DNA of 64,000 bases from a virus (IMGVR_UViG_2786546133_000001:1-64000), one strand, 5' to 3'. Shown: positions 3,035-40,688, numbered from the stretch's first letter. Numbers and translations: made by a program. Notes: generated by a model not told the origin, from the sequence alone.

Positions 3035-3462
3035 GCGAAGCCGAGCTCGGCGAGCTGACCATGCAGGCGCTCGCCCTGGCCGTCGACGGCGACGGGGACG
3101 GCGCCGCCCGCCTGGTGTGCGAGATCGGCGAGAAGTCCGGCCGCGACCAGTTCGGCGTGTACGCCGCGTGCTGCGGGTTCGCCGAGGCCGCCCGGCAGAT
3201 GCTCGTGAAGATCTACGGCGACCGCGCGCCCGACCTATCCAAGGGCGAGCAGTGGGCCATGGCCCAGATCCCCGGCCTGCGCGCCGACGCCTCCGACCTG
3301 TTCGCGCTGCGGTTCATCGTCGCGTACGCCAACGACGACCGGCCGACGGCGCTCGCCCTGTGGCGGGCCGCCGTCCACGCGAGCAATGACGAGTACGTGT
3401 CGTCGGTCGCCTCCGTCCTCGCCGCGGCGGCGAGTCTCACCAGAACGGCGAACAACCTGTGA
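3028..3462 (+). CDS. Hypothetical protein
   Basis: Overlaps upstream stop; GC3-biased codons. Confidence 0.75.
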   Translation: MLSEAELGELTMQALALAVDGDGDGAARLVCEIGEKSGRDQFGVYAACCGFAEAARQMLVKIYGDRAPDLSKGEQWAMAQIPGLRADASDLFALRFIVAYANDDRPTALALWRAAVHASNDEYVSSVASVLAAAASLTRTANNL

Positions 3463-3659
3463 CCCGTCCCGAAGGACCGCCGGCTGAGCGCGGCGGCCGA
3501 GACCTCGTGATCGAGGCCGTCATCCAGGCCGGCGGCCTCGGGTGGCGAACGATCTCCCTGAGCCGGCTTCGGCGCCTGGCCGAGGGCGACGCGACGGCGC
3601 TCCCGCTCGGGAAGCCGACCCCGGCCACCGCGCCGACGACCGAGGAGGCGACCCGTTGA
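3459..3659 (+). CDS. Hypothetical protein
   Basis: GTGA coupling to upstream gene. Confidence 0.6.
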   Translation: MTRPEGPPAERGGRDLVIEAVIQAGGLGWRTISLSRLRRLAEGDATALPLGKPTPATAPTTEEATR

Positions 3660-6673: not shown

Positions 6674-7492
6674 ATGCAGTTCGACACTCCGGACAAGCTC
6701 CGCGACTTCCTGAAGCTGTGTCTCGACCCCGGCCCCGGCCGCGACAAGCGGACCCCGGTCCGGTTGCTCGAAGTCCTGCCGCCGCAGATGCACGACCAGC
6801 TGATCCGGCACGCGCCGCACCTGCGGCCCCTGCGGCACCGCGTCGACGCTCTCGCCGAGCAGCAGCACGCCGCGCACGACGAGTATGCCGACGCGCTCGC
6901 CGCGTGGATCCGCGGCGACGAGCAGCCGCCGGCCCGCCGGTCGCTGCCGCTGCTCGAAGCCGTGGCCGTCGCCTATGAGGCCGCCGTCGAGCACATCGAC
7001 GGCTGCTCGACCTGCCGCCCGGACATGCGGCTCGCCGAGATGTGCCCCGACGGGCAGGCCGCCGCCGTCGCCGGTCTCGACGCCGTCCCGGCCGCCGTCA
7101 CGGAGTGCGCGCACGAACATCCCGAGGACATGCGGACCGTCGGCGGCCGGGTCCTGCTGACGCGCTGCGGCGACTGCGGCGAGCGCCTGCCGTTCACCGC
7201 CGCCGAGATGAACGCCGCGCGGGTCGACGTCGCCGCGCTCGACGCCGAGTTCCCCGACGGCGACTGCGCGCATGTCGCCTGGGAGGTCACCAGCCAGGTT
7301 CCGACCGGCGACGGCGGGTGGCGGAAGTGCCGCAAGTGCTCGGACTGCGACGAGCCCCTCCCCGCGCTCGTCGAGCGCGAGCCGCACCCGTTCGACGGCG
7401 CCCGCCACGACCGGGCCGCCGACGCCGAGCCGGTCCGCGCCCACATCCCCGGCGACGAGAGCGAGATCAGCACGCGCGGGTGGACCGCGTGA
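6674..7492 (+). CDS. Hypothetical protein with several CxxC motifs
   Basis: AAGGAG RBS; CSTC, CGDC, CSDC. Confidence 0.75.
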   Translation: MQFDTPDKLRDFLKLCLDPGPGRDKRTPVRLLEVLPPQMHDQLIRHAPHLRPLRHRVDALAEQQHAAHDEYADALAAWIRGDEQPPARRSLPLLEAVAVAYEAAVEHIDGCSTCRPDMRLAEMCPDGQAAAVAGLDAVPAAVTECAHEHPEDMRTVGGRVLLTRCGDCGERLPFTAAEMNAARVDVAALDAEFPDGDCAHVAWEVTSQVPTGDGGWRKCRKCSDCDEPLPALVEREPHPFDGARHDRAADAEPVRAHIPGDESEISTRGWTA

Positions 7493-7812
7493 CCGGCGGC
7501 CGGCTGCTCGGCGCCGCCGTCCCGGTCTTCCTCCTGGCTGCCGCGGCGGTTCTCGTCGGGGCCGCGGTCACCCGCGCCGTGCTCAACCGGCGCGACCGCC
7601 GGAACGACCGGCCGCCGGCGGCTGGCTTCCTGCCGCTCGCCGTCCGCCGCCGCGTGAAGCGATGGAGGCACGCGCGCGAGTGGCGCCGCATCGAGGTCTT
7701 CACGTTCCAGTGCGCGCCGGTCCCGACCTGGTGCCGCATCCGCGCGTGGAACGACGCCGCGCACATCTGGCGGCGCCGTCCCGAGCGGCCCCGGAAGGAG
7801 ACGCGCCGGTGA
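7489..7812 (+). CDS. Membrane-anchored hypothetical protein
   Basis: GTGA coupling; hydrophobic N-terminus. Confidence 0.6.
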   Translation: MTGGRLLGAAVPVFLLAAAAVLVGAAVTRAVLNRRDRRNDRPPAAGFLPLAVRRRVKRWRHAREWRRIEVFTFQCAPVPTWCRIRAWNDAAHIWRRRPERPRKETRR

Positions 7813-8012
7813 CCGTCCTCGCCTGCCCCGGCTGCCCGGCGACTCGTCGCGTCGGTCAGTACCTGTGCCCGTCCTGCTGGGGCGCGCTGCCCGCCGCCGC
7901 CCGGCGCGCGCTCAATGAGCGCCGCAGCAGCGTCGCCATTCCTCGGCTGCGGCAGCTCCTCGACCAGCTCGCCGACGGCGTCCCTCCGCACGGAATCGAG
8001 ATAAGCCTGTGA
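7809..8012 (+). CDS. Small zinc-binding protein
   Basis: AAGGAG RBS; CPGC...CPSCW. Confidence 0.7.
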   Translation: MTVLACPGCPATRRVGQYLCPSCWGALPAAARRALNERRSSVAIPRLRQLLDQLADGVPPHGIEISL

Positions 8013-8440
8013 ACACCCACCGCCGCTACGCCCGCGCCCTCGCGGCCGGCTCCGCGCTGCTCGCCTTCGCCTCGGTCGCCGTCGCCGTCTGGTCCATCGC
8101 GACCTTCGGCCTCGACGACGGCGGATACCTGCTGCCGGTCGTCGCCTTCCTGTACGGCGCCGTCCTGCTCGCCTGGTGCTCGTCGCGGGAACGGATCGCC
8201 GCCCGCCGCGCCGCCGAGCCGGTCTGCTGCCCGCTGTTCCGCACCTCGGGCACCGTCCACGGCGGCGGCTGCCTGCGGCACGCCGCGCCGGTCGCCGAGC
8301 AGACCGACGACCGCGATCCGGGCCCGGCGCACGGCGGCCTGCCCTGCTACGGCGAGTTCGGCGACGTGCTGTGCGTCCGCCCGGCCGGTGACGGACACAG
8401 CGACCACTTCCCCTACTGGGCCACGTTGGGCCGCTCGTGA
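8009..8440 (+). CDS. Membrane protein (2 TM) with Cys/His-rich tail
   Basis: GTGA coupling; two hydrophobic segments. Confidence 0.7.
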   Translation: MNTHRRYARALAAGSALLAFASVAVAVWSIATFGLDDGGYLLPVVAFLYGAVLLAWCSSRERIAARRAAEPVCCPLFRTSGTVHGGGCLRHAAPVAEQTDDRDPGPAHGGLPCYGEFGDVLCVRPAGDGHSDHFPYWATLGRS

Positions 8441-8784
8441 CCGGCCAGGACTGGGCACGGATCGCCGTCGCGCTCGCGTGCATGTGGGTCGGTGGCTACG
8501 CGACCGGCCGGGGGCGCCCCGTGCGCGCGCTCGTCGCCTGGGCCGACTGGCACGTCTCGTACGCCTCGCGCTGGTCGCCGCGGTTCTGGCTCGCCGTGCC
8601 GGTCGTCGCCGTCGCCGCCTGCTGCCTGCTCGTCGTCCGGCCGCGCCGGTCGCTGCGGAACTGGCGAGCAGCGCGCGAGCGCGACCGGCGACGAGCGCTC
8701 GCGGCACACACACCGCTCCGCCTGCACGATCGGCGTGACCAGTGCGGACACACACAACACAAGGAACATGAGGGGGCAACTTGA
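8437..8784 (+). CDS. Membrane protein
   Basis: GTGA coupling; two hydrophobic segments. Confidence 0.6.
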   Translation: MTGQDWARIAVALACMWVGGYATGRGRPVRALVAWADWHVSYASRWSPRFWLAVPVVAVAACCLLVVRPRRSLRNWRAARERDRRRALAAHTPLRLHDRRDQCGHTQHKEHEGAT

Positions 8785-8821
8785 CAGTGCAACGTGAGAG
8801 TGCAACATTGTGTGTGTCAGC
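8781..8821 (+). promoter_or_regulatory. Conserved promoter/operator, copy 1 of 5
   Basis: TTGACA-GTGCAACGTGAGAGTGC-AACATT...GTCAGC (17-bp spacer). Confidence 0.8.
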
Positions 8822-8849
8822 GCACCGCACGACCCACGGGAGACACCGA

Positions 8850-9476
8850 ATGACCGGCACCGAGATCGTCCTGAACCGGCCCGACGCCGAAGCCGTCCTC
8901 GCCCGCGACGTCCGCAAGGGCGACGTCGTCCTCGGCTGCACCGTCCTGTCCCAGTGGACCGGGAAGATCGAGGTCATCGAGCACTCGGACCCGTACGTCG
9001 CCGACCCGCGCCCTGACGTTCCGGGCTGCCAGTGCCCCGGACACGAGTCGCTCGAAGAGGCCGACCGCGCGAGGGAGTTGGTCATCCTCTACGACGGCGA
9101 GATCTGGGACTTCGCCTGTGACGTCGTCCCCGCCGACGAGTACGTGATCATCCGCAAGCGGCAGGCCGAGGCGGTCGCCGAGGTCGCCGCCGAGCAGGCG
9201 CCGCAAGACGAGCAGGCCGAGCAGGCCGCGCCCGTGCTGCGCCCCGTCAGCAAGGGCAGCAAGACCAGCGTCTTCACTCACAACGGCACGACCGTCTACG
9301 TCTACCCGACCGCCGGAAACCGCGAGCTGTTCTCGGCGCGCCCCGAGGGCCACAAGACGATCGTCTCCCACCGCAAGACCGCCGAAGAGGCCGCCCGCGC
9401 CGCCGTCGCCTACCTCGACGGCGACGACAGCCAGCGGACCGGGTTCGACCTGCTCTCGGAGCTGCTGACCCTGTGA
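8850..9476 (+). CDS. Hypothetical protein
   Basis: GGGAG RBS, ATG at 8850 just after promoter. Confidence 0.75.
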   Translation: MTGTEIVLNRPDAEAVLARDVRKGDVVLGCTVLSQWTGKIEVIEHSDPYVADPRPDVPGCQCPGHESLEEADRARELVILYDGEIWDFACDVVPADEYVIIRKRQAEAVAEVAAEQAPQDEQAEQAAPVLRPVSKGSKTSVFTHNGTTVYVYPTAGNRELFSARPEGHKTIVSHRKTAEEAARAAVAYLDGDDSQRTGFDLLSELLTL

Positions 9477-15613: not shown

Positions 15614-15626
15614 CGCCGACAAAGCA

Positions 15627-15662
15627 AAGCCCCCCGGACATCGGAAGTGTCCGGGGGGCTCT
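15627..15662. terminator. Bidirectional terminator between convergent genes
   Basis: AGCCCCCCGGACA-tcggaag-TGTCCGGGGGGCT. Confidence 0.75.
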
Positions 15663-15741
15663 GCTGCGTGGACGCGCGCCGCCAGAGTACCGGGCACGCG
15701 CGGCGTGACGCCCGTCGAGCGATGAACGATCGATAAACGGG

Positions 15742-16122
15742 TCAGGCACTCGGCGGCTGCTCGCCGTCCCGCGTCGCGTCGCTCGCTCCGTCGGCGGCTG
15801 CTCGCTTACGCCGCCCTGTACGCGGTCGGTCCTTGCCCGACCCGGAGTAGCCGCGCTCGATGTCCTGCACGGTACTGATCGAGCAGCCGAGCGTCTCGGC
15901 GATCACCCGATACGGGACCTTCTTAGCGCGCTGCTCGTCGACCCACGCCTTCCGCGTCGCCTTGAACTCTGGCCCTTTCTCCTTCTGCAATCGCAGAACC
16001 TCAGTGATCGCGCGCGCCTGCTGGGCGGGATCGTCCATCTGCTCGATGGCTCGCAGCGCGTCAGCCACTCGCCGCCCCTCCTCCGTGCCGTTTTGTTCCT
16101 CGGCCAATCCCGCTCCTTCCAC
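15742..16122 (-). CDS. HTH transcriptional regulator (Kor/TraR-like position)
   Basis: PYRVIAETLGCSISTVQDIERG HTH; divergent from membrane operon. Confidence 0.8.
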   Translation of the reverse strand: MEGAGLAEEQNGTEEGRRVADALRAIEQMDDPAQQARAITEVLRLQKEKGPEFKATRKAWVDEQRAKKVPYRVIAETLGCSISTVQDIERGYSGSGKDRPRTGRRKRAAADGASDATRDGEQPPSA

Positions 16123-16139
16123 GGGGAGCCGCTTGCGGT

Positions 16140-16163
16140 GACTTTATGGGATCCCATAAAGTC
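16140..16163. promoter_or_regulatory. Perfect 24-bp palindrome, putative operator
   Basis: GACTTTATGGGATCCCATAAAGTC, AT-rich, between divergent genes. Confidence 0.8.
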
Positions 16164-16273
16164 GGGGCAAGCGGCACCGCCTCGGTGCTGTGTCCATACA
16201 GAACGGCGCCGAGCGGAGTTGTGAGAGGCCCGCTCGGCGCCGGTCGCCCACCTGACCTACCAGGAGTGCGAAC

Positions 16274-16447
16274 GTGAGTAAGGCTAACCGGGCGCCCGGC
16301 GCCCGCGAAGACGGACGGGCCGACTCGGGCGGTACCGAAGGAAACCGAGCAGGAAACACGTACAGCGCCGTCCTGCTGCGCGGCGAGAAGGACACCAGCG
16401 CCCCTCAGACGCGCGGCATCCCGGCTCGCTCGGGTGGTCGCGGATGA
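16274..16447 (+). CDS. Small hypothetical protein (57 aa)
   Basis: AGGAG RBS, GTG start, ATGA-coupled to next gene. Confidence 0.45.
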   Translation: MSKANRAPGAREDGRADSGGTEGNRAGNTYSAVLLRGEKDTSAPQTRGIPARSGGRG

Positions 16448-16641
16448 GCCCCCGCCGGATCAGCACGAGCACGCCGAACCGGACCGTCGCCCAGCCGGCC
16501 ACGGTGAGCGCGTGCCGCACGGACCGCGGCACGCCGCAGGACCGGGCCGCTCGGGCCGAGGAGGCCCTCGGGCAGAACGAGTCGGCGAAGTTCCACGCGA
16601 AGGAGAGCGCCGAGTCCTGCGGTGGGAGGCGGACCACGTGA
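16444..16641 (+). CDS. Small hypothetical protein
   Basis: Translational coupling on both sides. Confidence 0.55.
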   Translation: MSPRRISTSTPNRTVAQPATVSACRTDRGTPQDRAARAEEALGQNESAKFHAKESAESCGGRRTT

Positions 16642-16877
16642 GCGCCTTCGACCGCCTTCGCGAGGCGCTGACGGGCGGCCCGCGCTACACGCCCGCCGTC
16701 GGCCCGTACGCCTCGACGCGCGAGCAGGAGAAGAACGCCCGCCAGCGCGGGCGGGAAGCCGACCTCGCGGCCGGTCGCCGACAGCGGCACCGCGAGAGCG
16801 TCTTCCGCAACGGCGACGCCGGCGACGGAACGCGGTTCGCCTTCGAGCGCAAGAGCCGTTGGCGGCGCGGCTCCTGA
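16638..16877 (+). CDS. Small basic hypothetical protein
   Basis: GGAGG RBS, GTGA coupling. Confidence 0.6.
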   Translation: MSAFDRLREALTGGPRYTPAVGPYASTREQEKNARQRGREADLAAGRRQRHRESVFRNGDAGDGTRFAFERKSRWRRGS

Positions 16878-16970
16878 CCGCCACCTGACCGGCCGGGTCC
16901 TGCTCCCCCTCCCCCTGGCAGGGCCCGGCCTTCCTGCGACACGTCCCGACCACATGTGAAGGGCAGAACC

Positions 16971-18212
16971 ATGACCGAGACGCGCAAGCTCACCAAGGGG
17001 CAGCGCGCCGTACTGATCTCCGCGACGGTCCCGATGATCGGCTTCGGCGGCCTCGGCGGCTGGGGCACGTTCACCAACGTCGTCAGCGAGTTCGGTCCGG
17101 ACCGGCAGGCGACGGCGCTCGGCGTCGTCGCGGCCGGTGAGGGCGCGACGCTCGTCCTCGCTCTGGTCATGGTGCTGCTGACCATGTTCGGGCAGGCCGC
17201 ACCCTGGCCTGTCCGGGCCGGTCTGTGGTCGGCACCGGCCGCCGCGGCGGCGACCGGCGTCGCCGTCGCCGACACGCTGACCGAGTCGGTCGTCTACGGG
17301 ATCACTCCCATGGCGATGTGCGTCGCGGCCGAGGGCCTCGGCCTGGTCGCCCGTCGGCTCGTCGTCTACCGGACGAGCGTCGACGTCGAGGCGCAGCGCC
17401 GCAACGCGCAGATCATGCGCAGGATCGCGTACCACCGTGCGCGCGCCGACCGGCACCCGTGGAAGTGGGTGCAGAACTGGTCGGAGCTCGCCGCGTGGCG
17501 ACTGCTGCGGCGGGCGGGGGAGGGCGACGTCGAACTCGGCGTCGACCTGATCCGCGTGCAGCGCGTCACGCTCACCGAAGGCGCGGGCCTGGCGCTCGGC
17601 GACATGCTCGCCACCGGCCCGGCCGTCCCCGCGCTGCTGCCCGCGGCTGAGCCCGCGCCCGTCATCCGTGAGCCCGAGCCTGAGCCCGAGCCCGAGCCTG
17701 CGCCGCGCGAGCCTGAGCCTGAGCCCGTGCCTGAGCCTGAGCCGGAACACGAGCGTGAGCCCGAGCCCGAGCAGCAGCGCGGCGAGACGGCGGTCCCGCC
17801 CGTCCCGCGCGTCGGCGAGCAGCAGACCGGCGGCACGGGCACTGACCAGGCTCGACCCGGCGGTGAGCCCGCCCGCGAGCCTGAGCCTGAGCCCGAGCCC
17901 GAGCCGCAGCGTGAGCCTGAGCCCGCCGAGGGCGAGCAGCTCCAAATCCTCAAGCTCGCCGACCGGCTGCGCGGCGGCGAGCAGATCACGAAGAGGACCG
18001 CGGCGCCGCTGCTCGGCGTGAGCCCGGCCACGGCGCAGCGCAGGCTCACACAGGCCCGCCGCGTCGTGACGCTCGCCGAGCGGCTCAAGGCCGGTGACCG
18101 GCTCACACCCGCGACGGCGGCCCCGCTGCTCGGCGTCGACGAGCGCACCGCCGGCGCCCGCCTGAACGAAGCGCGACAGCTCAACGGAGAAGGAGAGGGG
18201 TTCTACGCATGA
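16971..18212 (+). CDS. SpdB-like / conjugal-transfer-type membrane protein with EP repeats and two C-terminal HTHs
   Basis: 4 TM segments; AAEGLGLVARRLVVYRTSVDVEAQRRNA...AYHRARA recalls Streptomyces plasmid spread proteins. Confidence 0.65.
   Translation: MTETRKLTKGQRAVLISATVPMIGFGGLGGWGTFTNVVSEFGPDRQATALGVVAAGEGATLVLALVMVLLTMFGQAAPWPVRAGLWSAPAAAAATGVAVADTLTESVVYGITPMAMCVAAEGLGLVARRLVVYRTSVDVEAQRRNAQIMRRIAYHRARADRHPWKWVQNWSELAAWRLLRRAGEGDVELGVDLIRVQRVTLTEGAGLALGDMLATGPAVPALLPAAEPAPVIREPEPEPEPEPAPREPEPEPVPEPEPEHEREPEPEQQRGETAVPPVPRVGEQQTGGTGTDQARPGGEPAREPEPEPEPEPQREPEPAEGEQLQILKLADRLRGGEQITKRTAAPLLGVSPATAQRRLTQARRVVTLAERLKAGDRLTPATAAPLLGVDERTAGARLNEARQLNGEGEGFYA
17647..17925 (+). repeat. (C)GTGAGCC/TGAGCC hexamer array encoding Glu-Pro
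   Basis: Many GAGCCT/GAGCCC units using the rare CCT codon. Confidence 0.8.
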
Positions 18213-19084
18213 ACGACCGCATCGAGCCCGACGACGACGAGACCGCGGTCCGTACGATGCTTCGCCGTCTCGGCGTCCGCCCCCCTGGATACGACGCCGA
18301 CGAGGACGCCGAGCAGCGGCCCGCGCCCGCCGCCGTGGTGGTCCCGCCCAAGCCCGACTATGACCCGGACGTCCCGGCGCCCGCGCCGCGCCGGTCGAGC
18401 GTGCCGCGCCTGCCGGACCGGTGGAAATCCCGTAAGCCCGACCTCGAGGACGCCGCGGCGTCCGAGGACGGCGAAGGCGACGAGCCGGAAGAGCCGGCCC
18501 TCGACGAGCAGCACGACGACGACGGCGACGAGCAGCCCGCCCGGCGCCGCCGTCCGCGCCTGCGGAAGGTCTCGAAGGACCCTGACGCCGTCGACGACGA
18601 CGAGCCCGACGACCTGGGCGAAGAGGATGACGAGGACGCCGCAGAGGACGACGAAGACGCGGGGGAGGGGCAACGGCGCAAGCGCGGCGGCAGGTGGCGG
18701 CGCTCGCGCGGCGAGACGACCAGGCCGCCCTTCGCGACCGCCGTCCCGCTGTACCGCGAGACCGAGAAACGGTCACTCGCCGAGCTGTTCCGCAGCATCC
18801 CGGCACACAAGAAGTGGCTGCTGTACGTCGGCAGCGGCTTCGGGGCCGGCTGGTACTTCGGCATCCCGCAGTACGCCCGCGACGCGACGGCCGCCGTCGC
18901 GCAGCACGGGGGCCGGCTCCAGGACAACCCCGACGTCTACTTCTGGGGCGTCGTCGCGCTCGTCGTCGTCTCCCTCGACCGCAAGACCCGCCGGTCGTGG
19001 TTCCTGATCGCCTGGGCCACGCGCGGCCTGACCGTCTGCCTGATCGTCGGCGCGCTGTTGTACGGCAACCCGCTCCCGAACTGA
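18209..19084 (+). CDS. Membrane protein with acidic N-terminus (spread-module-like)
   Basis: ATGA coupling; 3 C-terminal TM segments. Confidence 0.75.
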   Translation: MNDRIEPDDDETAVRTMLRRLGVRPPGYDADEDAEQRPAPAAVVVPPKPDYDPDVPAPAPRRSSVPRLPDRWKSRKPDLEDAAASEDGEGDEPEEPALDEQHDDDGDEQPARRRRPRLRKVSKDPDAVDDDEPDDLGEEDDEDAAEDDEDAGEGQRRKRGGRWRRSRGETTRPPFATAVPLYRETEKRSLAELFRSIPAHKKWLLYVGSGFGAGWYFGIPQYARDATAAVAQHGGRLQDNPDVYFWGVVALVVVSLDRKTRRSWFLIAWATRGLTVCLIVGALLYGNPLPN

Positions 19085-19114
19085 TCCAGCCCCACACGCA
19101 AAGGAAGCTGACCC

Positions 19115-19531
19115 GTGAAATCCCTGATCCCTTCGCTCGGGGTCGTCTCGTTCGCCGTCGTGCTCACTGTCGTGCTGATCCTCGGCACGAAGGAACAGAA
19201 GGTCGGCAAGGCGAAGCCGCTCGGCTGGTGGTGGGTGCTGATCCTGAGCATGATCGCCGGGGCCTCGTACACCGCCGCCGGGTGGCCGTTCAACATCGTC
19301 TCTCAGTTGATCATGGGGGACGGCGTCAACCTGATCACTGCCGCCCTTCCGGGGATCTCGCTGCCCGGCCTCGTGCTCGTGCTGCTCGCATTCCTGGCGT
19401 GGGTGGGGCTCAGCCGGCGGCAGGTCGCCGTGACCGGGATCATCCTGGTTCACATCATGGCGGGCGCCGGCGGTGGGTTCGGCACCCTCGCGCAGCGGAT
19501 CCACACGATCGCGATGCACTTCGCGTCATGA
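19115..19531 (+). CDS. 4-TM membrane protein (spread-module-like)
   Basis: Almost entirely hydrophobic helices. Confidence 0.8.
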   Translation: MKSLIPSLGVVSFAVVLTVVLILGTKEQKVGKAKPLGWWWVLILSMIAGASYTAAGWPFNIVSQLIMGDGVNLITAALPGISLPGLVLVLLAFLAWVGLSRRQVAVTGIILVHIMAGAGGGFGTLAQRIHTIAMHFAS

Positions 19532-20778
19532 CCACCGTCACGGCGCAGACGCCCGGCCCGGACGGCGAGACGACTCAGCTCGCCGCCGGGCTCACGGACG
19601 AGCAGGCTCAGGCTCACGTCTCCCGTGAGCCTGAGCCTGAGCCGATCTGTGAGCCTGAGCCCGACACCGAGCGTGAGCCTGAGCCTGAGCCCGACGCCGA
19701 GCCTGAGCCGGGGGAGAGGCCCGAGAAGATCCGCGCGCTCGCGATCCCCGACCTGCGCCCGTACGCCGACGCGAAGGCCGCCGTCGGCCTCGCTCGCCGC
19801 GGCATGGCCGCGAGCCGCAAGCCGGCTGCCAGCATCGGCCGCCGCGTCCTGACGGCGCTCGCCGCCGGGCTCAGGCTCATCTGGTCGGGGAGCGTGACCC
19901 TGCTCGGCCTGCTCCTCGGCTGGCTCGCCGGCACGTACGGCACGAAGCCCTCGATCCCCGCCCGGCTCGCGATCGGACTCGGCGCGCTGCTCGCCGTCGT
20001 TCACACCGTCGGCGAGTTCCCCACGCAGGGCGCGACCGGCGTCGTCTGCCTGTGGTGCGTGGCCGCGATCGCCGCCGGTCGCGGCGCCTTCGACAAGCTG
20101 CTGGGCAAGGGCAAGAAGAAGGCGCAGAAGGCCCCCGCGAAGGACGGCGAGAAGGCACCCGCGCAGGACGTCGCGAAGGACGACGGCGACGCCCCGGCGC
20201 TCCGCCGGAAGGGCCTCGCCCGGTGGGGGCGCAGGACCGCCGAGCAGGCCCCCGCCGAGGACGCCGACGGCACCCCCGGCGAGGACGTCGACGAGGACCT
20301 CGACGAGCCCCCGCTGACGGCCCTTATCCGGGAGCTGACCGGCGACGACAACGGGGTCCACCTGAGCACCCTCCGCCCCGCCATGCGGCAGCGCCTGCCG
20401 GGCCTGTCGGGGGCCACCGATAAGCAGCTCAGGCAGGTGCTCGTCGACGCGGGTTACGACCCCTCCCGTACGTTCCGCGCGAGGGGTGTCGCCGGGCGGG
20501 CCGGTGTGCACCGCGACGAGCTGCCGCCGCTGCCCTCCCCCGGCGACGGCCAGGAAGCGGAGAGCGACGGCTCTTCACCCCCGGAGAGTGGCCCTGACCT
20601 GCGTAAATCTCCGCACTCTCCGCCCCCGGAGAGTCGCCCGGAGAGAGGCCGGAAGGCCCGCTCGCAGGCCCCGGAAGGGTGGACCGAAGAGGACGTCGCC
20701 CGCGGCTACCGGTGGGTGAACGACGCCTCGCGCGGCCCGTCGGCATGGGTGATCGAGCACAGGCAGGACGCCGGCTGA
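19528..20778 (+). CDS. Membrane protein with EP repeats and C-terminal putative DNA-binding domain
   Basis: ATGA coupling; 3 TM; GVHLSTL...RQVLVDAG...RAGVHRDELP. Confidence 0.7.
   Translation: MTTVTAQTPGPDGETTQLAAGLTDEQAQAHVSREPEPEPICEPEPDTEREPEPEPDAEPEPGERPEKIRALAIPDLRPYADAKAAVGLARRGMAASRKPAASIGRRVLTALAAGLRLIWSGSVTLLGLLLGWLAGTYGTKPSIPARLAIGLGALLAVVHTVGEFPTQGATGVVCLWCVAAIAAGRGAFDKLLGKGKKKAQKAPAKDGEKAPAQDVAKDDGDAPALRRKGLARWGRRTAEQAPAEDADGTPGEDVDEDLDEPPLTALIRELTGDDNGVHLSTLRPAMRQRLPGLSGATDKQLRQVLVDAGYDPSRTFRARGVAGRAGVHRDELPPLPSPGDGQEAESDGSSPPESGPDLRKSPHSPPPESRPERGRKARSQAPEGWTEEDVARGYRWVNDASRGPSAWVIEHRQDAG
19604..19638. repeat. Perfect 15-bp inverted repeat of the TGAGCC unit
   Basis: AGGCTCAGGCTCACG-tctcc-CGTGAGCCTGAGCCT. 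Confidence 0.8.
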
Positions 20779-20898
20779 CAGACCGGCGCAGGGAATCGAA
20801 CGGTCCGTACGAATAGTGAAAGAGGGGCAATCATGGGCCGGTCACGCGGCGCGTCCTCCATCATGAGCGGTAACGACGCGCGAGTGAGGAGAACGATC

Positions 20899-21153
20899 GT
20901 GAGCGGCCCGTACGCGTACCGCTGTCCGTTGTGCCGGACGACGTCGCCGGCCGTCGACACCAAGCCCGAAGCGCGAGCGGCCGGTGCGCGGCACCGCGAC
21001 CAGTTCCACGGCGGCGACCACCCGGACGGCGAGGAGATCATCCCGGTCGAGGCCGAGCCGGTGCGGTGGGCCGACGTCCCGCGCGGGCAGAAGATCGCGA
21101 CGGTCGTCCTCGTCGTCGCCGTGCTGCTCGGCGTCTGGATCAAGAACTTCTGA
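20899..21153 (+). CDS. Small zinc-finger protein with C-terminal TM
   Basis: GAGGAG RBS; CPLC...HRDQFH; hydrophobic tail. Confidence 0.75.
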   Translation: MSGPYAYRCPLCRTTSPAVDTKPEARAAGARHRDQFHGGDHPDGEEIIPVEAEPVRWADVPRGQKIATVVLVVAVLLGVWIKNF

Positions 21154-21167
21154 CCTCCGCCGCTCGC

Positions 21168-21208
21168 ACGAAAGCCCCCCGCCGTCTCGTACGGCGAGGG
21201 GCTTCGTC
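21168..21208 (+). terminator. Stem-loop terminator
   Basis: AAGCCCCCGCCGT-ctcgt-ACGGCGAGGGGCTT. Confidence 0.6.
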
Positions 21209-21258
21209 GTGTCGGCCGCCACTCCCCCACTCGGCGCGTGATCCTCAGGCCGGTCGCC

Positions 21259-21335
21259 GGGCTCAGGCTCACGGGCTCGTGCCGCTACTCGGGCCCACGG
21301 GCTCACGTCGCGCGGCTCAGGCTCACGGGCTCACG
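21259..21335 (-). repeat. Non-coding GGCTCA(G/C) repeat cluster (reverse complement of the EP repeats)
   Basis: GGCTCAGGCTCACGGGCTC x2 plus partial copies. Confidence 0.7.
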
Positions 21336-21343
21336 TCGGCCGG

Positions 21344-21844
21344 CTAGTTCGCCGCCGTCTCGCGGATGCGCGGGACGCCCGCCTCGTCGGCGAGCTGATA
21401 GATCCGGTTGCGCTTGTACGGCACGTGCTGAGCGATCTCGCTCGGCCCGATGTGCCGCTCGGCGTAGTGCTTCACGATCCCCTTGTGCAGCGCCTCGCGC
21501 GCCTTGTCGACCGCACCCTCGGCGGCCTTGAACGCCTTCGTCAGATCGTCGAGCTCGCCGGTCGCGGCGTCGACGGTCGCGGCGTCGTACTTCGGCTGTG
21601 GCCCCTTGGGCAGCGGCTCGACGCCGCCGGCCTTGCCGATCCTGCCGACGTGCACCCGGTCGTAAGGCGTGTGCTCGGCGATGACGCTCGGCGGCGCGTT
21701 GCGCGCCTTGAGGTGCCGGACGATCGCGGCTTGCAGCTTGTCGCGCGCCTGGTCCTGTTTCTCCTCGGCGCCGGTGAACCGGGTGGTGAGCCGGGTCAGG
21801 TCGCGGATCGCGGCCGTTTTGTTCGGGTCGGGTGTCGGTGACAT
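21344..21844 (-). CDS. Putative repressor with duplicated coiled-coil-HTH domain
   Basis: ATG at 21844; PPSVIAEHTPYDRVHVGRI and GPSEIAQHVPYKRNRIYQL; divergent from promoter copy 3. Confidence 0.75.
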   Translation of the reverse strand: MSPTPDPNKTAAIRDLTRLTTRFTGAEEKQDQARDKLQAAIVRHLKARNAPPSVIAEHTPYDRVHVGRIGKAGGVEPLPKGPQPKYDAATVDAATGELDDLTKAFKAAEGAVDKAREALHKGIVKHYAERHIGPSEIAQHVPYKRNRIYQLADEAGVPRIRETAAN

Positions 21845-21865
21845 GCGGCCACTATGACACACGAT

Positions 21866-21959
21866 GGTGCAACGACAAAGTGCGTCGGATAACTTCCCCC
21901 GTAATCCTGTGGTGCAACTTGACAGTGCAACGTGAGCGTGCAACATTATGTGTGTCAGC
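21866..21959 (+). promoter_or_regulatory. Conserved promoter/operator, copy 3 of 5, with extra GTGCAAC boxes
   Basis: GTGCAAC at 21912, 21925 and 21938 (13-bp period) and at 21866; TTGACA at 21919, AACATT at 21942. Confidence 0.8.
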
Positions 21960-31892: not shown

Positions 31893-32816
31893 ATGGACGA
31901 CAAGGCGACGTACGCACGCACCGAGACACTCCCGCTCGGCCGGCTCCGGCCGTTCCCCGGCAACGCGAAGATCGGCAACGTCCCGAAGATCCTGGAGAGC
32001 CTTTGCAGGAACGGGCAGTACAGGTCGCTCGTCGTCCGCGAGCACGACGGCGGCACGCTGACCGTCCTCGCCGGTAACCACACCCTTCAGGCGCTCGCCG
32101 CCCACGGGCCCGGCGACTGCGGCATGACCACCCGCAACGGCGACACCGAGCGGCCCTGCGCCGTCTGCGGAAACAAGCCCTGGGATCCGGCCGCGCGCTG
32201 CGAGATCGTCACCTGCGACGACGACACCGCGACCCGGATCAACCTCGTCGACAACGCCTCGAACGACGGCGAGTACGACGCGCTCGCCCTCGCCGCGCTC
32301 GTCGAGGGCCTCGACGGCGACCTGACCGGCACGGGCTACACCGACGCCGACCTTGAGACGCTCGTGACCGCGCTGGACGTCGCGATGGACGACGCCGACC
32401 TGTACGACGACGAGGACGAGGACGAGGACGACAAGCAGGACCAGGCGCCCGAGCAGCCGGCGGCCGCCGCGGCGCCGACACCGACGACCGCGGTCGCGAC
32501 CGGCGAGCAGCAGCCGGCGCCGGGCATCGTCACCGCGCCGACGCCGTCCGGGCTGGCCGCCGTCGACTCGTCGGCCGGGCTCGTGCCCGCCTTCTCGCAC
32601 GAGCGCGTCCCGATGGTGCTGCACTTCTCGCAGGCCGACCGCGACGAGGCTGCCCGGCTCGTGTCCGCCGCCCGCGACATGTTCCCCGCCGACGAGTCCC
32701 CGGCGATCGTGCTGCGCTCCCTGCGCACGCTCGTCGCCGTCCTGGACTCGCGCCACTCCCCGGACGGCGTCGTGACCGTCGCCGCCCTGCTGCGCGCCGC
32801 AGGGGCCGACCGGTGA
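31893..32816 (+). CDS. ParB/Srx N-terminal-domain protein
   Basis: LRPFPGNAK...SL.RNGQYRSLVV...VLAGNHT...INLVDN. Confidence 0.8.
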   Translation: MDDKATYARTETLPLGRLRPFPGNAKIGNVPKILESLCRNGQYRSLVVREHDGGTLTVLAGNHTLQALAAHGPGDCGMTTRNGDTERPCAVCGNKPWDPAARCEIVTCDDDTATRINLVDNASNDGEYDALALAALVEGLDGDLTGTGYTDADLETLVTALDVAMDDADLYDDEDEDEDDKQDQAPEQPAAAAAPTPTTAVATGEQQPAPGIVTAPTPSGLAAVDSSAGLVPAFSHERVPMVLHFSQADRDEAARLVSAARDMFPADESPAIVLRSLRTLVAVLDSRHSPDGVVTVAALLRAAGADR

Positions 32817-33676: not shown

Positions 33677-34294
33677 ACGCACGTCCGGACCGCCGTCCTC
33701 GCCCTCGACGAGCTCACCCCGTATCCCGGTAACCCTCGCGTCGGGAACGTGCCGTCGATCCTCCAGAGCCTCCGCCGGAACGGGCAGTACCGCGGGCTCG
33801 TCGTCCGCGACGAAGGCAACGGCCGGCTCGTCATCCTCGCCGGCAACCACACCGCGAAGGCGCTCGCCGCGCACGGCCCGGAAGCCTGCGACTACACAGT
33901 CAAGGTCAACGGCACCGAGCGGCCCTGCGGCGTCTGCCAGAACCAGCCATGGGAGCCGAGCGCCCGCGTCGACGTCATCACCTGCGACGACGACACCGCC
34001 CGCCGCATCGTCCTCGCCGACAACAAGACCAGCGACGACGGCACGTACGACAACGACGCCTTGGCCGAACTGCTCAGCTACCTCGACGAGGACGGCTACG
34101 AAGGCACCGGCTACAGCGACGACGAGGTCACGCGGCTGATCCACGTCGACCTCCCCGAGGGCTTCGAGTCGTACGCCGAAGACGTCGCCGACCAGCCCGG
34201 CACGTCGAGCAGCGAACCGGCGACCGCGTTCATTCACACCTGCCCTAACTGCGGCCACGAGTTCCAGACCGGCGCGACCGGCACCGACAGCTGA
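33665..34294 (+). CDS. ParB/Srx N-terminal-domain protein (paralog of 31893) with C-terminal CPNC
   Basis: LTPYPGNPR...GQYRGLVV...ILAGNHT...LADNK. Confidence 0.8.
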   Translation: MTQATHVRTAVLALDELTPYPGNPRVGNVPSILQSLRRNGQYRGLVVRDEGNGRLVILAGNHTAKALAAHGPEACDYTVKVNGTERPCGVCQNQPWEPSARVDVITCDDDTARRIVLADNKTSDDGTYDNDALAELLSYLDEDGYEGTGYSDDEVTRLIHVDLPEGFESYAEDVADQPGTSSSEPATAFIHTCPNCGHEFQTGATGTDS

Positions 34295-35343
34295 TGGGCG
34301 CCTACAAGGACCGACTCGACGCGCTGTGGGCGGCACACGTCGCCCCGCGCGCCGACGACGCACCCACAGTCGTCAGCACGTTCGCGGGGGGCGGAGGATC
34401 GAGCCTGGGCTACGGCGCGGCCGGTTTCCGCGAGCTCCTCGCCGTCGAGTGGGACAAGCACGCCGCGATGTGCCTGCGTCGCAACTTCCCCGAGGTCGAG
34501 GTCTTCCACGGGGACATAGCCAAGGTCGACCCCTCGATCCTCGACCTCGCGCCCGGCGAGCTCGACGTCTTCGACGGCTCCCCGCCCTGCCAGGGCTTCA
34601 GCACCGCCGGGAAGCGGCAGATCGACGACCCCCGCAACGGCCTGTTCCGCGAGTACGTCCGCCTGCTCGACGCCTGGCAGCCGAAGGTGTTCGTGATGGA
34701 GAACGTGTCGGGCATGGTCAAGGGCCGCATGCGCTCCCTGTTCGCGGAGATCCTCGGCGCCCTCAAGACGGCCGGTCCGGGGTACCGCGTCGTCGCCCGG
34801 CTCGTCGACTGCGGGTACTTCGGCGTCGCCACCATGCGACAGCGCATGATCTTCGTCGGCGTCCGCGAGGACCTCGCCCTCGACCCCGTCCACCCCGCCC
34901 CGCAGATGCGGCCGCCCGTCCTGCGCGACGCCCTCGAAGACCTCGGCGACCCCGGCCTCATCCTCCACCCCAAGGGCGGGATCACCACGCTCGCGCCGCT
35001 CGTACCGCCAGGCCGCGACGGCGCCGACGTCCTGCACTCACGCGGTGCTCGACGAGCGTTCTTCAACCTCCAGCGCGCCCACTGGGACCGGCAATGCTGG
35101 ACGATCACCAAGAGCATGGCCCCCGGACGTCACGGGATCATGCACCCCGACGAGAACCGCTTCCTGTCCTCGCGCGAGATCTGCCGCATCCAGGGCTTCC
35201 CCGACGCCTACGACTGGGGCGAGAGCCGGCTGCAAGACATCTGGGCCCGCGTCGGCAACAGCGTCCCGCCGCCCCTCATGCTCGCCGTCGCCTCCACCAT
35301 CCGCGACCGCATCCTCACCCCCGCCCGCACCCGGCGCGAGTAG
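34294..35343 (+). CDS. C5 DNA cytosine methyltransferase
   Basis: FAGGGG, GSPPCQGFS, ENV, RQRMIF, R.QGFP, VGNSVPP. Confidence 0.93.
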   Translation: MGAYKDRLDALWAAHVAPRADDAPTVVSTFAGGGGSSLGYGAAGFRELLAVEWDKHAAMCLRRNFPEVEVFHGDIAKVDPSILDLAPGELDVFDGSPPCQGFSTAGKRQIDDPRNGLFREYVRLLDAWQPKVFVMENVSGMVKGRMRSLFAEILGALKTAGPGYRVVARLVDCGYFGVATMRQRMIFVGVREDLALDPVHPAPQMRPPVLRDALEDLGDPGLILHPKGGITTLAPLVPPGRDGADVLHSRGARRAFFNLQRAHWDRQCWTITKSMAPGRHGIMHPDENRFLSSREICRIQGFPDAYDWGESRLQDIWARVGNSVPPPLMLAVASTIRDRILTPARTRRE

Positions 35344-35392: not shown

Positions 35393-35818
35393 ATGCAGGG
35401 CAAGTCACCAAAGCAGCGGCTCACCGCCGCCGAGCGCCGTAAGCAGGCGTTCGGCCTGTACCTCGCCGGCGTCGACCTCGGCACCATCGCGCAGCAGGTC
35501 GGCTACGCCAACGCGAGCAACGCCCACCGCGCGATCAAACAGGCCATCGAGGAGAGCACCGTCCGCGAGCAGCTCGAACAGACACAGGCGTCCATGGACG
35601 ACGCTCGGCGCCTGGCCATGCTGCGGTACGACCGGCTACAGGCGGCGTTCTGGGGAGCGGCGGTCAAGGACAAGGACCGGCACGCGGCGAACATCGTGCT
35701 TAAGTGCATGGCGGGCCGGGACAAGCTGACCGGCGTCGAGGCGCCCCGCAAGGTCGAGCACTCGGGCGAGGTCACCACGTACGAGATCATCGGCGTCGAC
35801 CCGGACGACCTCGTATGA
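35393..35818 (+). CDS. Terminase small subunit
   Basis: N-terminal HTH (IAQQVGYA); KVEHSG tail; ATGA-coupled to TerL. Confidence 0.8.
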   Translation: MQGKSPKQRLTAAERRKQAFGLYLAGVDLGTIAQQVGYANASNAHRAIKQAIEESTVREQLEQTQASMDDARRLAMLRYDRLQAAFWGAAVKDKDRHAANIVLKCMAGRDKLTGVEAPRKVEHSGEVTTYEIIGVDPDDLV

Positions 35819-37299
35819 CCACGGTCGCCGAGCGGACGGCGCCGGTCGTCACCTTCGAGGCGCGCGGCGCGCACCGCAAGCTGCTGCTGTGCCGGGACAC
35901 CGAGGTCGCCGCCGTAGGCCGGGCCGGCTCGGGGAAGACGCTCGCGGCGTGCTGGAAGCTGCACCTGACGGCACTCAAGGTGCCGAACCTGCGGGCCCTC
36001 ATGCTGCGCGCGACGCACACGAGCCTGACGGCGACGACGCTCGTGTCCTTTCAGCGGTACGTCGCCGCGGCGGCGCTCGCCGACGGCTCGGTCCGCTGGT
36101 TCGGCGGATCGGGCAAGGATCCGGCGGCGTTCCGGTACGCCAACGGCAGTCAGATCCTCGTCGCCGGCGGCGACCGGCCCGAGAAGTTCCTGAGCGCCGA
36201 ACTCGACCGGATCTTCTGTGACGAGGGCGTCGAGATCAGCCTCGACCTGTACGAGACGCTGATCTCCCGTCTGCGCGGCGCGGCGCCGACGTACAAACAG
36301 ATCATGCTCGCGACTAACCCGAGCCACCCGCAGCACTGGATCAAACAGCGCGCCGACGGCGCTCAGCTCACGATGATCACCTCGGGGCACCAGGACAACC
36401 CCGCCTATGTGCGGCCCGACGGCACGTACACCGAGGCCGGCCGCGAGTACATGGAGAAGCTCGACGCGCTGACCGGCGTGCGCCGGGCGCGGCTGAAGGA
36501 CGGGCGTTGGACGAGCGCCGACGGCGCCATCTACGAGGAGTGGGACGACACGGTGCACGTCGTCGACCGCTTCCCCGTGCCCGACGAGTGGCCGCGGATC
36601 TGGGGTGTCGACTTCGGCTTCACGAACCCTTTCACGGTGCAGTGGTACGCGATCGATCCGGACGGCCGGCTGTGGATGTACCGCGAGCTGTATATGACCC
36701 GGCGCACCACGGACGAGCACGCGAGGACGATCCTCGACGCCGTCACCGTCGTCGACGAGGAGACCGGCGAACGCGAGTGGACGGAGCCGAGGCCCGTCGC
36801 GATCGTCTGCGACCACGACGCCGAGGACCGCGCGATCCTGGAGCGCGAGCTGGGGCTCGTCACGACGGCGGCGCACAAGGCGGTGAAGACCGGCATCCAG
36901 GCCGTCAAGGCGCGGCTGCGACCGGCCGGTGACGGACGCCCGCGGTTCTACGTCATGCGGGACACGCTGATCGAGCGGGACGAGCAGCTCGCCGAGGCGA
37001 AGAAACCGATGTGCTTCACGGACGAGGTGCCGGGCTACGTGTGGGCGAAGCCGGCCGCGGCGAAGGTCGGCAGCAAGGCCGAGCCCGAAGAGCCCTTGAA
37101 GGTCGACGACCACGGGATGGACACGGCGCGGTACGTCGTCGCCGAGCTGGATCTCGTCGGCGAGGCGCGTATCCAGTCGCCGACCAGGCGCGGCCCGCAG
37201 CAAGGGCCGGGCGGGCGGGGACGTCCGACGGCGGCCTCACGGTACGGGCGGGTCGTCGGCGGCCCGAACGGCACGGGCGGCGGCGGAGGCCGCCGGTGA
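35815..37299 (+). CDS. Terminase large subunit
   Basis: Walker A GRAGSGKT, Walker B IFCDEG, ATNP, GVDFGFTNP, DHGMDTARY. Confidence 0.93.
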   Translation: MTTVAERTAPVVTFEARGAHRKLLLCRDTEVAAVGRAGSGKTLAACWKLHLTALKVPNLRALMLRATHTSLTATTLVSFQRYVAAAALADGSVRWFGGSGKDPAAFRYANGSQILVAGGDRPEKFLSAELDRIFCDEGVEISLDLYETLISRLRGAAPTYKQIMLATNPSHPQHWIKQRADGAQLTMITSGHQDNPAYVRPDGTYTEAGREYMEKLDALTGVRRARLKDGRWTSADGAIYEEWDDTVHVVDRFPVPDEWPRIWGVDFGFTNPFTVQWYAIDPDGRLWMYRELYMTRRTTDEHARTILDAVTVVDEETGEREWTEPRPVAIVCDHDAEDRAILERELGLVTTAAHKAVKTGIQAVKARLRPAGDGRPRFYVMRDTLIERDEQLAEAKKPMCFTDEVPGYVWAKPAAAKVGSKAEPEEPLKVDDHGMDTARYVVAELDLVGEARIQSPTRRGPQQGPGGRGRPTAASRYGRVVGGPNGTGGGGGRR

Positions 37300-38951: not shown

Positions 38952-40688
38952 GTGGTGCGCCGCGAACTCACCGCCGCCGCCTCCCGCTACACGAAGAAGA
39001 TCGCCAGTAGCCGCGTCCGGAAGCCCGACTCGTCGTGGCAGGCCGAGGGCTGGTCGTTCTACGACGTCGTGCCCGAGGTGCGGTTCGCCGCGACCTGGGT
39101 CGGCGGCGCCATGTCCGGCGCGACGCTGTTCGCCGGGCGCCGCGGCGACGACGGCACGATCGAGCGTGCGCCCGACGACCACCCGGCGACCGAGATCGTC
39201 CGGCAGATCGCCGGCGGCCCCGACGGGCAGTCGGGCATGCTCGGCGACTTCGGCCCTCACCTCGTCGTCGCCGGCGAGGGCTGGATCGTCATTCGGCCCA
39301 CCACCGACAAGGCGACCGGCGCCGTCACCGGCTACGAGTGGCGCGTCCTGTCCACGTCCGAGGTGCAGCAGCAGAACGGCAAGCTGACCGTCGAACTCGA
39401 CGGCGAGCCGGTCGACCTGCCCGCGTACGACGAGGACAACCCCGACGAGTCCGCGCCGATAGCGATCCGCGTGTGGAAGCCGCACCCGCGCCGCCACATC
39501 GAGGCCGACAGCCCCGTCCGCTCCAGCCTCGTCCTGCTCGAAGAGCTCCAGCTGTTGAACGCCGCCGTCGCGGCGATCGCCCGGAGCCGGCTGACCGGCC
39601 GGGGCGTGCTGCTCGTGCCGAAGGGGACGCGCTTCCCGACGCCGCCCGGCGCGCGCAACGACGCCGAGGACGACGTGATCGACGTGTTCATGGAGGTCGC
39701 CGCGACGGCGATCCGTGAACCGGAGTCCGCCGCGGCGACCGTCCCGATCGTGCTGGAGGTCCCGGCCGAAGCGATCGGCTCTATCAAGTGGCTGACGTTC
39801 GAGTCCGACTTCGACGAACTCGCCCTCAGGTTGCGCGACGAGGCGATCCGCCGGTTCGCGACCGGCCTCGAAGTCCCGGCAGAGATCTTGTTGGGCCTGT
39901 CCGATTCGAACCACTGGAACAGCTGGCTGATCGCGGGTGAGGCGATCCGACTCGGCGTCGAACCGCGGCTCGCCGTCATCGCGTACGCCCTCACCACGCA
40001 GTGGCTGCGCCCGCTGCTCGAAGCCCAAGGCGTCGACGACGCCGAGGACTGGCTCGTCTGGTACGACACGAGCGCTCTGAGGGCCTCCAGCAACCGCGCA
40101 CAGACCGCGCTCGAAGCGTTCCAGCTCGGGCTGATCTCCGGTGAGGCCGCCCGCCGCGAAACCGGGTTCACCGAGGACGACCGGCCTGGCGCCACCGACC
40201 CCAACGGCGCGCAGCAGCCCGCCGACACGACGCAGACGGAGGAACCCAGCAACGTGACGACCCTGCCCGTGGCCGAGTCCCCCAGCATTCCCGACACCCT
40301 GCCCGCCTCCGCCGTGCCCGACCTGCCGGCCGAGATCCTCGCCGCCGTCGACGGGCTGATCTGGAACGCCCTCTACGCGGCGGGGACCCGGCTGCGGAAC
40401 CGGCCCGCTTGCCCCCGCTCCGAGCGTGCGCACGCCCGCAGCATCGTCCCCACCGACCTGCACACCACGTACGCCGTCGACGCCGAGCAGATCGACGAGT
40501 GGCGCCTCCTCGAAGGCGCGTGGGTCCGCGTGCCCGAGATCGCCGCCCGCTACGGCCTCGACCCCGACTGCCTCACGTCCGCGCTCGACGAGTACGCCCG
40601 CGCGCTGATCGCCGCCCGTACCCCGTTCACGTTCGACGACGTGCCCCGGCTGCTGCGCATGTCCGCCTGCAAGGCAGACGCGGCATGA
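38952..40688 (+). CDS. Portal protein
   Basis: 578 aa between TerL and MuF; WQAEGW..YD.VPE.RF, P.EILLG....NHW. Confidence 0.8.
   Translation: MVRRELTAAASRYTKKIASSRVRKPDSSWQAEGWSFYDVVPEVRFAATWVGGAMSGATLFAGRRGDDGTIERAPDDHPATEIVRQIAGGPDGQSGMLGDFGPHLVVAGEGWIVIRPTTDKATGAVTGYEWRVLSTSEVQQQNGKLTVELDGEPVDLPAYDEDNPDESAPIAIRVWKPHPRRHIEADSPVRSSLVLLEELQLLNAAVAAIARSRLTGRGVLLVPKGTRFPTPPGARNDAEDDVIDVFMEVAATAIREPESAAATVPIVLEVPAEAIGSIKWLTFESDFDELALRLRDEAIRRFATGLEVPAEILLGLSDSNHWNSWLIAGEAIRLGVEPRLAVIAYALTTQWLRPLLEAQGVDDAEDWLVWYDTSALRASSNRAQTALEAFQLGLISGEAARRETGFTEDDRPGATDPNGAQQPADTTQTEEPSNVTTLPVAESPSIPDTLPASAVPDLPAEILAAVDGLIWNALYAAGTRLRNRPACPRSERAHARSIVPTDLHTTYAVDAEQIDEWRLLEGAWVRVPEIAARYGLDPDCLTSALDEYARALIAARTPFTFDDVPRLLRMSACKADAA

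Follow-up and report, generated by a model that had tools for sequence, protein, structure and literature searches.

The hyphae of Streptomyces hold multiple genomes and are partitioned by cross-walls, which plasmids cross by means of TraB together with Spd proteins, and Kor proteins repress the kil and spd genes. The passage of phage genomes between the hyphal compartments of Streptomyces is the question on which the operon described here bears. We analyzed IMGVR_UViG_2786546133_000001:1-64000, a 64,000-nucleotide (nt) stretch of viral DNA (hereafter the window), with a focus on a cassette at 15614–21204 that has a hairpin at either end. In this cassette, a head gene (p418) is followed by p291, p138, p416 and p106, and a gene for a helix-turn-helix (HTH) regulator (reg126) is divergent from them.

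The closest described systems are the Tra-Spd loci of Streptomyces plasmids. For pSVH1 of Streptomyces venezuelae, Thoma et al. (2015, PMC4447253) describe a locus with the order spdB3-spd79-spdB2-orf108-traB under the control of TraR. SpdB2 is presented there as a DNA-binding protein with four transmembrane (TM) helices and pore-forming activity, which also promotes spheroplasting by T7 lysozyme. Expression of spdB3 is reported to be toxic, and spd operons are described as having overlapping stop and start codons. The same source already records SpdB2 homologues on actinophages, along with the idea that these may aid the spread of phage DNA, and it cites the phiC31 genome paper for the phiC31 homologue of SpdB2, which we infer to be gp25.

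The cassette is probably a self-contained operon, with a divergent HTH repressor acting on a palindromic operator, that corresponds to the Tra-Spd DNA-transfer module found in Streptomyces plasmids and phages but lacks the motor. Where other elements have TraB after the head gene, the window has p291, p138, p416 and p106; TraB is replaced by a membrane-anchored winged-helix protein, p416. Genes were called with a third-position-GC script, and the genes for the membrane proteins are as follows.

16956–18212, + strand: p418, the head gene; four TM helices, three cytoplasmic helices, a Pro-Glu linker and two HTH units.
18209–19084, + strand: p291; an acidic N-terminal half, with TM segments towards the C-terminus.
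19115–19531, + strand: p138; about four TM helices, phrog_38677.
19528–20778, + strand: p416; an acidic Pro-Glu N-terminus, TM region 97–184, a Lys-rich linker, a winged helix at 262–328 and a C-terminal domain at 387–415.
20833–21153, + strand: p106; one CxxC motif and a C-terminal TM helix, phrog_32136.

Stop and start codons overlap as ATGA between p418 and p291 (at 18209) and between p138 and p416 (at 19528), and the true start of p418 is probably the ATG at 16971. A sequence-only reading of this DNA had counted five membrane proteins, two of them with putative DNA-binding tails. Hydropathy agrees with this count, with hydrophobic segments in p418, p291, p138, p416 and p106 alike, as do AlphaFold2 models of p418 and p416, each generated from a family alignment. 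The p418 model (mean pLDDT 77.6) contains four long helices at residues 14–46, 48–77, 84–104 and 108–140, three cytoplasmic helices that extend to residue 218, a disordered linker, and two HTH units within residues 323–409 (pLDDT 93–95). The tail matches Xre-like-HTH (E 0.0018) and Sigma70_r4_2 (E 0.0042) and is predicted from the model to bind DNA. It does not contain HTH_SpdB_C (PF27079), which among the 120 listed relatives is carried only by P0100; the double HTH of p418 is of another kind. The p416 model (mean pLDDT 70.0) contains a winged helix with the element order H-S-H-H-S-S at pLDDT 93–97. We are confident in the winged helix as a fold, and it is likewise predicted to bind DNA. Both proposed tails were recovered in this predicted form. 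The Pro-Glu linkers of p418 and p416 are encoded by tandem GAGCCC-type hexamers in 8–17 copies (17670–17772, 17864–17927 and 19624–19709), arrays that could expand or contract.

The sequence-only reading also noted that TraB is missing, and this extends to the entire source record, an IMG/VR provirus of 89,635 bp that is 100% complete by CheckV and of which the window is the first 64 kb. PF01580 has no match in the record; this is a weak test because gp72 of phage Asis, annotated as an “FtsK-like DNA translocase”, also misses PF01580. A tblastn search of the record with pIJ101 Tra, Asis gp72, Mischief19 gp79 and an 815-aa plasmid protein (see below) gave a best E of 0.22. A TraB profile made from 30 phage TraB-like proteins recognizes pIJ101 Tra (3e-17), Asis gp72 (1e-11) and Mischief19 gp79 (4e-8), and its best score in the record was E 0.074, on a 93-codon frame. 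The Walker-type motif GxxGxGK[ST] occurs in the terminase, the only one of the matching proteins with an assigned function, and in a Gly/Asn-repeat open reading frame (ORF) at the end of the record. Judged by its sequence, the provirus is confirmed to be without a TraB P-loop motor.

An alignment-based scan of IMG/VR with the p418 family found 66 viral loci, and a scan of viral contigs with the single p418 protein found no match. Thirty-two of the 66 loci have a TraB profile match at E ≤ 1e-5, at a median of 2.2 kb downstream of the p418-family gene. In 25 loci, a gene of about 108 aa separates the p418-family gene from TraB (in L013, for example, it is at 3152–3472, with a weak DUF6249 match at E 2.7e-4), and portal, protease and terminase genes are found further downstream in the TraB-bearing loci. 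An anchor gene call was available for 62 of the 66, and 57 of these were evaluable, with at least 4 kb of downstream sequence. TraB alone was present in 29 evaluable loci, one or more of p291, p138 and p416 alone in 13, neither in 15, and both in none (Fisher p 1.5e-5). A profile of the winged-helix domain was positive in 15/66 viral loci, none of them with TraB, and it had no match in pIJ101, the loci L001 and L002, Asis, Mischief19 or phiC31. A tree of 62 N-domains was obtained by a quick IQ-TREE search that omitted rows of less than 250 aa or lacking the GEG motif. Its well-supported branches require at least seven changes of the TraB label and at least six of the membrane-module label. The exclusion between TraB and the module is therefore not one inherited event.

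The module is also found in bacterial genomes. Using a narrow p416 alignment as the query against one genome per species, we identified 15 Streptomyces loci with a p416 relative. The order p291-p138-p416 is maintained in all 15, p106 is present in nine, and no locus has a TraB match. The head slot is occupied by the p418 family in five loci, by a second polytopic family in seven and by a DUF2637 protein in one, and it is empty in two. For the second polytopic family, the best Atlas cluster is 46% SpdB_N with a score of 0.96; the single DUF2637 protein was identified at E 1.1e-4 and 22.5 bits, against a cut-off of 22.8. Given the constant synteny and the varied head slot, p291-p138-p416 constitutes the conserved core, and the head is a swappable SpdB-type protein.

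The placement of p418 in a membrane-protein family tied to Streptomyces conjugation is supported. Scoring of the candidates gave 602 relatives of its N-domain (residues 1–225) at E ≤ 0.001. Among the 120 listed relatives, at least 10 are named “conjugal transfer protein” by NCBI, and all of the named members are from Streptomyces or Kitasatospora. By tblastn, the N-domain is found on 35 plasmid records from these two genera, including seven plasmids of 15–18 kb. In the one small plasmid examined, L001, which also encodes a GntR protein and kilB, the p418 relative is directly upstream of an 815-aa protein with an FtsK_SpoIIIE match (E 0.0096) and a deviant P-loop, a probable divergent TraB. The p418 family is present in 15 Streptomyces phage records as well. 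For example, Asis has the order gp70, gp71 (115 aa), gp72, and over 656 aa its gp72 shares 39.6% identity with pIJ101 Tra (E 4e-141). The Tra-like genes of the lytic-looking Woodruffvirus phages, at 6799–8847 in Asis (L005) and 7024–8919 in Mischief19 (L004), are located at the genome end and adjoin the p418-family gene. Across the family the C-terminal tails vary: some have a single HTH unit or a pair, some a GIY-YIG nuclease, and P0100 has PF27079. The GIY-YIG/T5orf172 nuclease tail occurs in P0010, P0017, P0022 and P0023, which suggests a membrane-anchored nuclease; in P0010, it is inserted between the membrane domain and the HTH units.

A mechanism in which phage DNA spreads with a borrowed pump is possible, and among the functions considered here it is the one we tentatively prefer. 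The five proteins would assemble in the hyphal membrane, perhaps at cross-walls, and the complex would keep hold of phage DNA in double-stranded form by means of the p418 HTH tail and the p416 winged helix, the latter of which may resemble the DNA-recognition end of TraB. Since the complex includes no ATPase, any movement of DNA would need a pump in trans, either an FtsK-family translocase of the host or a TraB encoded by a resident plasmid or actinomycete integrative and conjugative element (AICE). The prophage, or its replicating form, could then pass between hyphal compartments without virions, and the repressor would keep the operon off until needed, as Kor does for the kil and spd genes. 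In a bolder version that we consider doubtful, p416 is TraB stripped of its motor, retaining membrane helices and a DNA-recognition winged helix, and has been swapped with TraB, in either direction, at least six times in phage lineages. Together with the SpdB-like head, it would form a passive DNA dock that either borrows a host or plasmid pump for virion-free movement across cross-walls or jams such pumps, excluding rival elements.

Several results weigh against reading the cassette as a transfer module. The operon has no motor, and the recruitment of a translocase in trans is purely our inference. The head is replaceable, belonging to another family in 8/15 genome loci and being absent from 2/15, so the tie of the core to spread is only putative. 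Apart from p418, the membrane proteins of the operon have no kin on ordinary plasmids: one plasmid record has a match to p416, two to p138 and none to p291, and the shared record is the capsid-bearing phage-plasmid pSITFR-21c. In addition, p418 compared with pIJ101 SpdB gave a BLASTP E of 0.054 over 22 aa, the p418 family compared with 120 SpdB sequences gave an hhalign probability of 0.4%, and DUF2637 (PF10935) has no match in p418 at E ≤ 1 or in the whole record at E ≤ 10. A SpdB hidden Markov model found no match in the 89,635-bp record, and in precomputed Pfam annotation PF27080 (SpdB_N) is carried by none of the 120 listed p418 relatives.

There is weak evidence that p418 belongs to the DUF2637/SpdB superfamily. 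Three of 45 p418-family members match DUF2637, with a best E of 7.8e-5. In the ESM Atlas, DUF2637 clusters rank first for p418 (0.94, 22 of 30 matches), and SpdB_N and HTH_SpdB_C clusters score 0.84–0.87. Foldseek retrieved phiC31 gp25 (E 0.02, probability 0.99) and DUF2637 phage proteins, the latter at a probability of 0.96 but E 0.5–1.5. The relative P0100 is a p418-type N-domain fused to the C-terminal HTH of SpdB, PF27079. We conclude that p418 probably works like SpdB-type proteins and is distantly related to them, and we do not file it as a member. The Spd likeness proposed in the sequence-only reading therefore stands in part: it holds for the tie of the p418 family to Streptomyces conjugation, and it does not extend to a match with pIJ101 SpdB or to the other four membrane proteins, given their lack of kin on ordinary plasmids.

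The resemblance of p416 to TraB also counts as a point against the transfer reading, as it is weak. Comparison of the p416-family profile with the phage TraB family aligned the winged helix (267–333) to positions 626–687 of 700, within the last 75 residues, at E 3.9e-4 and a probability of 35%; the p416 family had no match to three pIJ101-type Tra proteins. With Foldseek, the best E values for p416 were 0.72 in the PDB, to a linker-histone winged helix, and 0.11 in BFVD, neither of which is significant, and no PDB sequence was matched by the p416-family profile. At E ≤ 0.001, the winged-helix family contains 317 representative clusters, of which the best 150 are 81–516 aa long; none of these 150 reaches the length of TraB. 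All 61 relatives of p416 are unnamed and without a Pfam family, and ten representatives of the winged-helix family are all either named “hypothetical protein” or nameless. Lastly, the hairpin boundaries and the dedicated repressor are also compatible with a prophage moron that acts in exclusion or defence.

In the latter case, the prophage would express a membrane decoy or block that binds incoming DNA, poisons the TraB-Spd systems of plasmids, AICEs and TraB phages, or bars the DNA of superinfecting phages. Besides the moron-like layout, a motor-less, TraB-like DNA-recognition domain is the expected look of a dominant-negative competitor, and the toxicity of spdB3 and the pore formation by SpdB2, both reported by Thoma et al. 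(2015, PMC4447253), could suit such a role. The winged-helix module is never found alongside TraB, which would also agree with exclusion, although substitution explains this pattern equally well. No match to a named defence or exclusion family was found (PADLOC was not searched). Overall, we regard a role in exclusion or immunity as rather unlikely.

Membrane tethering or partition appears to be improbable. Here the complex would anchor a replicating or extrachromosomal phage genome, and copies would be shared among compartments and spores with no transfer across cross-walls. This agrees with the predicted DNA-binding tails on two membrane proteins, with a ParB-like protein encoded in the window at 31893–32816, and with the presence of the same cassette on pSITFR-21c, a circular 103.5-kb plasmid that encodes a capsid. 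However, no conserved centromere-like repeat lies beside the module, the array at 21253–21345 being found in the window and L010 only, and the relatives of the head gene suggest a transfer module rather than a par system. It is more improbable still that the cassette acts in lysis timing, permeabilizing the membrane during lytic growth like a holin or kil function with the repressor as its kor partner. The divergent-repressor logic is as in kil-kor systems, and the pores and T7 lysozyme spheroplasting attributed to SpdB2 by Thoma et al. (2015, PMC4447253) offer a parallel. Against this, the cassette belongs to the early region, with the terminase 14 kb further downstream, and DNA-binding tails are not expected in holins.

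The favoured reading of the cassette, as a motor-less counterpart of the Tra-Spd module, includes a control region and defined boundaries. These comprise the following features.

15614–15674: left hairpin with 27-nt arms and a 7-nt loop, flanked by the upstream + strand operon and the reg126 3′ end.
15742–16122, − strand: reg126, a divergent 126-aa HTH protein; HTH_23, phrog_664.
16125–16178: a 54-bp inverted repeat, 85% complementary, with a perfect 24-bp palindrome at 16140–16163 as its core.
16274–16447, + strand: s57, a small ORF or leader, the stop of which overlaps the s65 start (ATGA).
16444–16641, + strand: s65, a small basic protein; third-position GC (GC3) 0.9–1.0, relatives in 10 loci.
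16638–16877, + strand: s79, a small Arg-rich protein; GC3 0.9–1.0, relatives in 7 loci.
21172–21204: right hairpin, 19 nt past the p106 stop.

The terminator-bounded layout, divergent HTH regulator and palindrome described in the sequence-only reading were all found. The folding energy of the left hairpin is −44.5 kcal/mol for the + strand and −49.5 kcal/mol for the − strand (z −6.2 and −6.3), and a 56-nt stretch holding the right hairpin folds at −33.8 kcal/mol (z −5.1); for both hairpins, 0/200 shuffles were as stable. The left hairpin looks like a bidirectional terminator, and the right hairpin is kept in L010. A consensus terminator scan that requires a T-run flagged the − strand of the left hairpin only. 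Of the three small ORFs in that reading, s65 and s79 are well supported by their GC3, their relatives and a GTGA overlap that joins them, and s57 is doubtful as a gene, with a weak GC3 of 0.67–0.80 and relatives in three loci.

Reg126 matches HTH_23 at E 2.2e-4, which is below the Pfam cut-off, and phrog_664 (“DNA binding protein”) at E 4.4e-5. As far as these sequence matches and its position indicate, it is likely the operon repressor. Its matches are generic HTH matches only, with none to the GntR family, which is defined by a winged helix plus UTRA. Reg126 is thus Kor/TraR-like in position only and not of the GntR family, and this part of the comparison with Spd operons is not supported. 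Homologues of reg126 are divergent and upstream of the operon in 9/66 viral loci and 12/15 genome loci, and in L013 one is found upstream of a TraB-type module. The 24-bp palindrome sits 18 nt upstream of the reg126 start, and there is no second copy of its half-site in the window, against a chance expectation of 0.04 matches. L010 keeps the palindrome with one mismatch and L030 has a related one, each beside a reg126 homologue; the operator sequence co-varies with the regulator. The 54-bp repeat is likely the operator.

On the other side of the cassette is m172 (21344–21862, − strand), a 172-aa protein with two similar halves that matches phrog_34713 and, weakly, HTH phrogs. It is divergent from the next + strand operon, and four GTGCAAC repeats (21865–21944) are located in the upstream region common to both; m172 and these repeats are probably a second regulator-operator pair. 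Homologues of m172 are found 3′ of the module in L010, L083 and L087. Between the convergent ends of p106 and m172 is the repeat array at 21253–21345, with 3.4 copies at a 28-nt period (GGCTCACGGGCTCA units). It is kept in L010 and absent from the 900 nt or less downstream of the module in the 15 genome loci. The array was considered as a clt-like site and set aside, as it is conserved in the close relative L010 only.

The provirus is a real siphovirus-type tailed prophage of Streptomyces, in line with the virion-forming phage proposed from sequence, and the GC content of the window is 69–76%. The integration and virion genes identified in the window are listed here.

1–1647, − strand: tyrosine integrase.
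35704–37299: large terminase.
38952–40688: portal.
44885–46558: major head protein.
From 60791: tape measure.

The major head protein is 57–60% identical to those of the Streptomyces Woodruffvirus phages TP1604, YDN12, Asis and Mischief19, and 57–61% identical to its counterparts on three capsid-bearing Streptomyces plasmids of 99–104 kb. A pZL12/pSLE1-like provirus was also considered and rejected; the capsid search did not recover those plasmids. The gene for the ParB-like protein and a DNA methyltransferase gene (34294–35343) are directly upstream of the terminase. A 1129-aa head protein (40908–44297) has PHROG matches of several kinds, among them portal-like and MuF-like head-morphogenesis ones. 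A paralogue pair of unknown function, phrog_18824, at 48018–50375 and 50372–53866 (785 and 1164 aa), is located between the head genes and the tail genes.

A widespread prophage lineage thus keeps the Spd-like part, with a winged-helix membrane protein in the place of the pump. The module is found in 15 Streptomyces species genomes, 15/66 viral loci and one phage-plasmid. The operon provides a defined five-gene target with a predicted operator for virion-independent spread and the exclusion of conjugative elements. In the literature searched, neither the p291-p138-p416 module nor its mutual exclusion with TraB was found to be described, which does not prove that a description is lacking.

Among individual elements, pSITFR-21c (NZ_CP134608.1) carries homologues of reg126, p291, p138, p416 and, weakly, m172 in the same order as in the window. 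It differs in the head gene, which comes from another polytopic family, and in the insertion of a NERD-domain gene. In the Woodruffvirus phages (Asis, TP1604, YDN12 and Mischief19), gp70 is a homologue of the p418 N-domain with 41–44% identity, but these phages retain a pIJ101-type Tra and have no p416 match. Nor do p291 and p138 have a match in the Asis and Mischief19 loci, the two Woodruffvirus loci with which they were compared. Like the provirus, phiC31 is a temperate phage without TraB, and its gp25 has a weak phmmer match (E 0.0034); the similarity is very weak, however, and phiC31 has no relative of p291, p138, p416 or the winged-helix domain.

The comparison with plasmids concerns mainly the head gene. 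Both p418 and pIJ101 SpdB have a polytopic N-domain and a C-terminal HTH, and SpdB_N Atlas clusters are found near p418 at 0.87, although the two proteins have no BLASTP or profile match. With pSVH1, the comparison is by the published description of Thoma et al. The spdB2 gene of pSVH1 is just upstream of orf108-traB, whereas p418 in the window has no TraB downstream, as 32/66 of its viral relatives do, and the regulator in the window is a small HTH protein rather than GntR. In both cases, nevertheless, a repressor controls an operon that encodes small membrane proteins and has stop codons overlapping start codons, and the p418 model agrees with the SpdB2 layout of four TM helices and a predicted DNA-binding part. 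Relatives of p418 also repeat the order head gene, ~108-aa gene, TraB, in which the ~108-aa gene recalls orf108 in both size and place.

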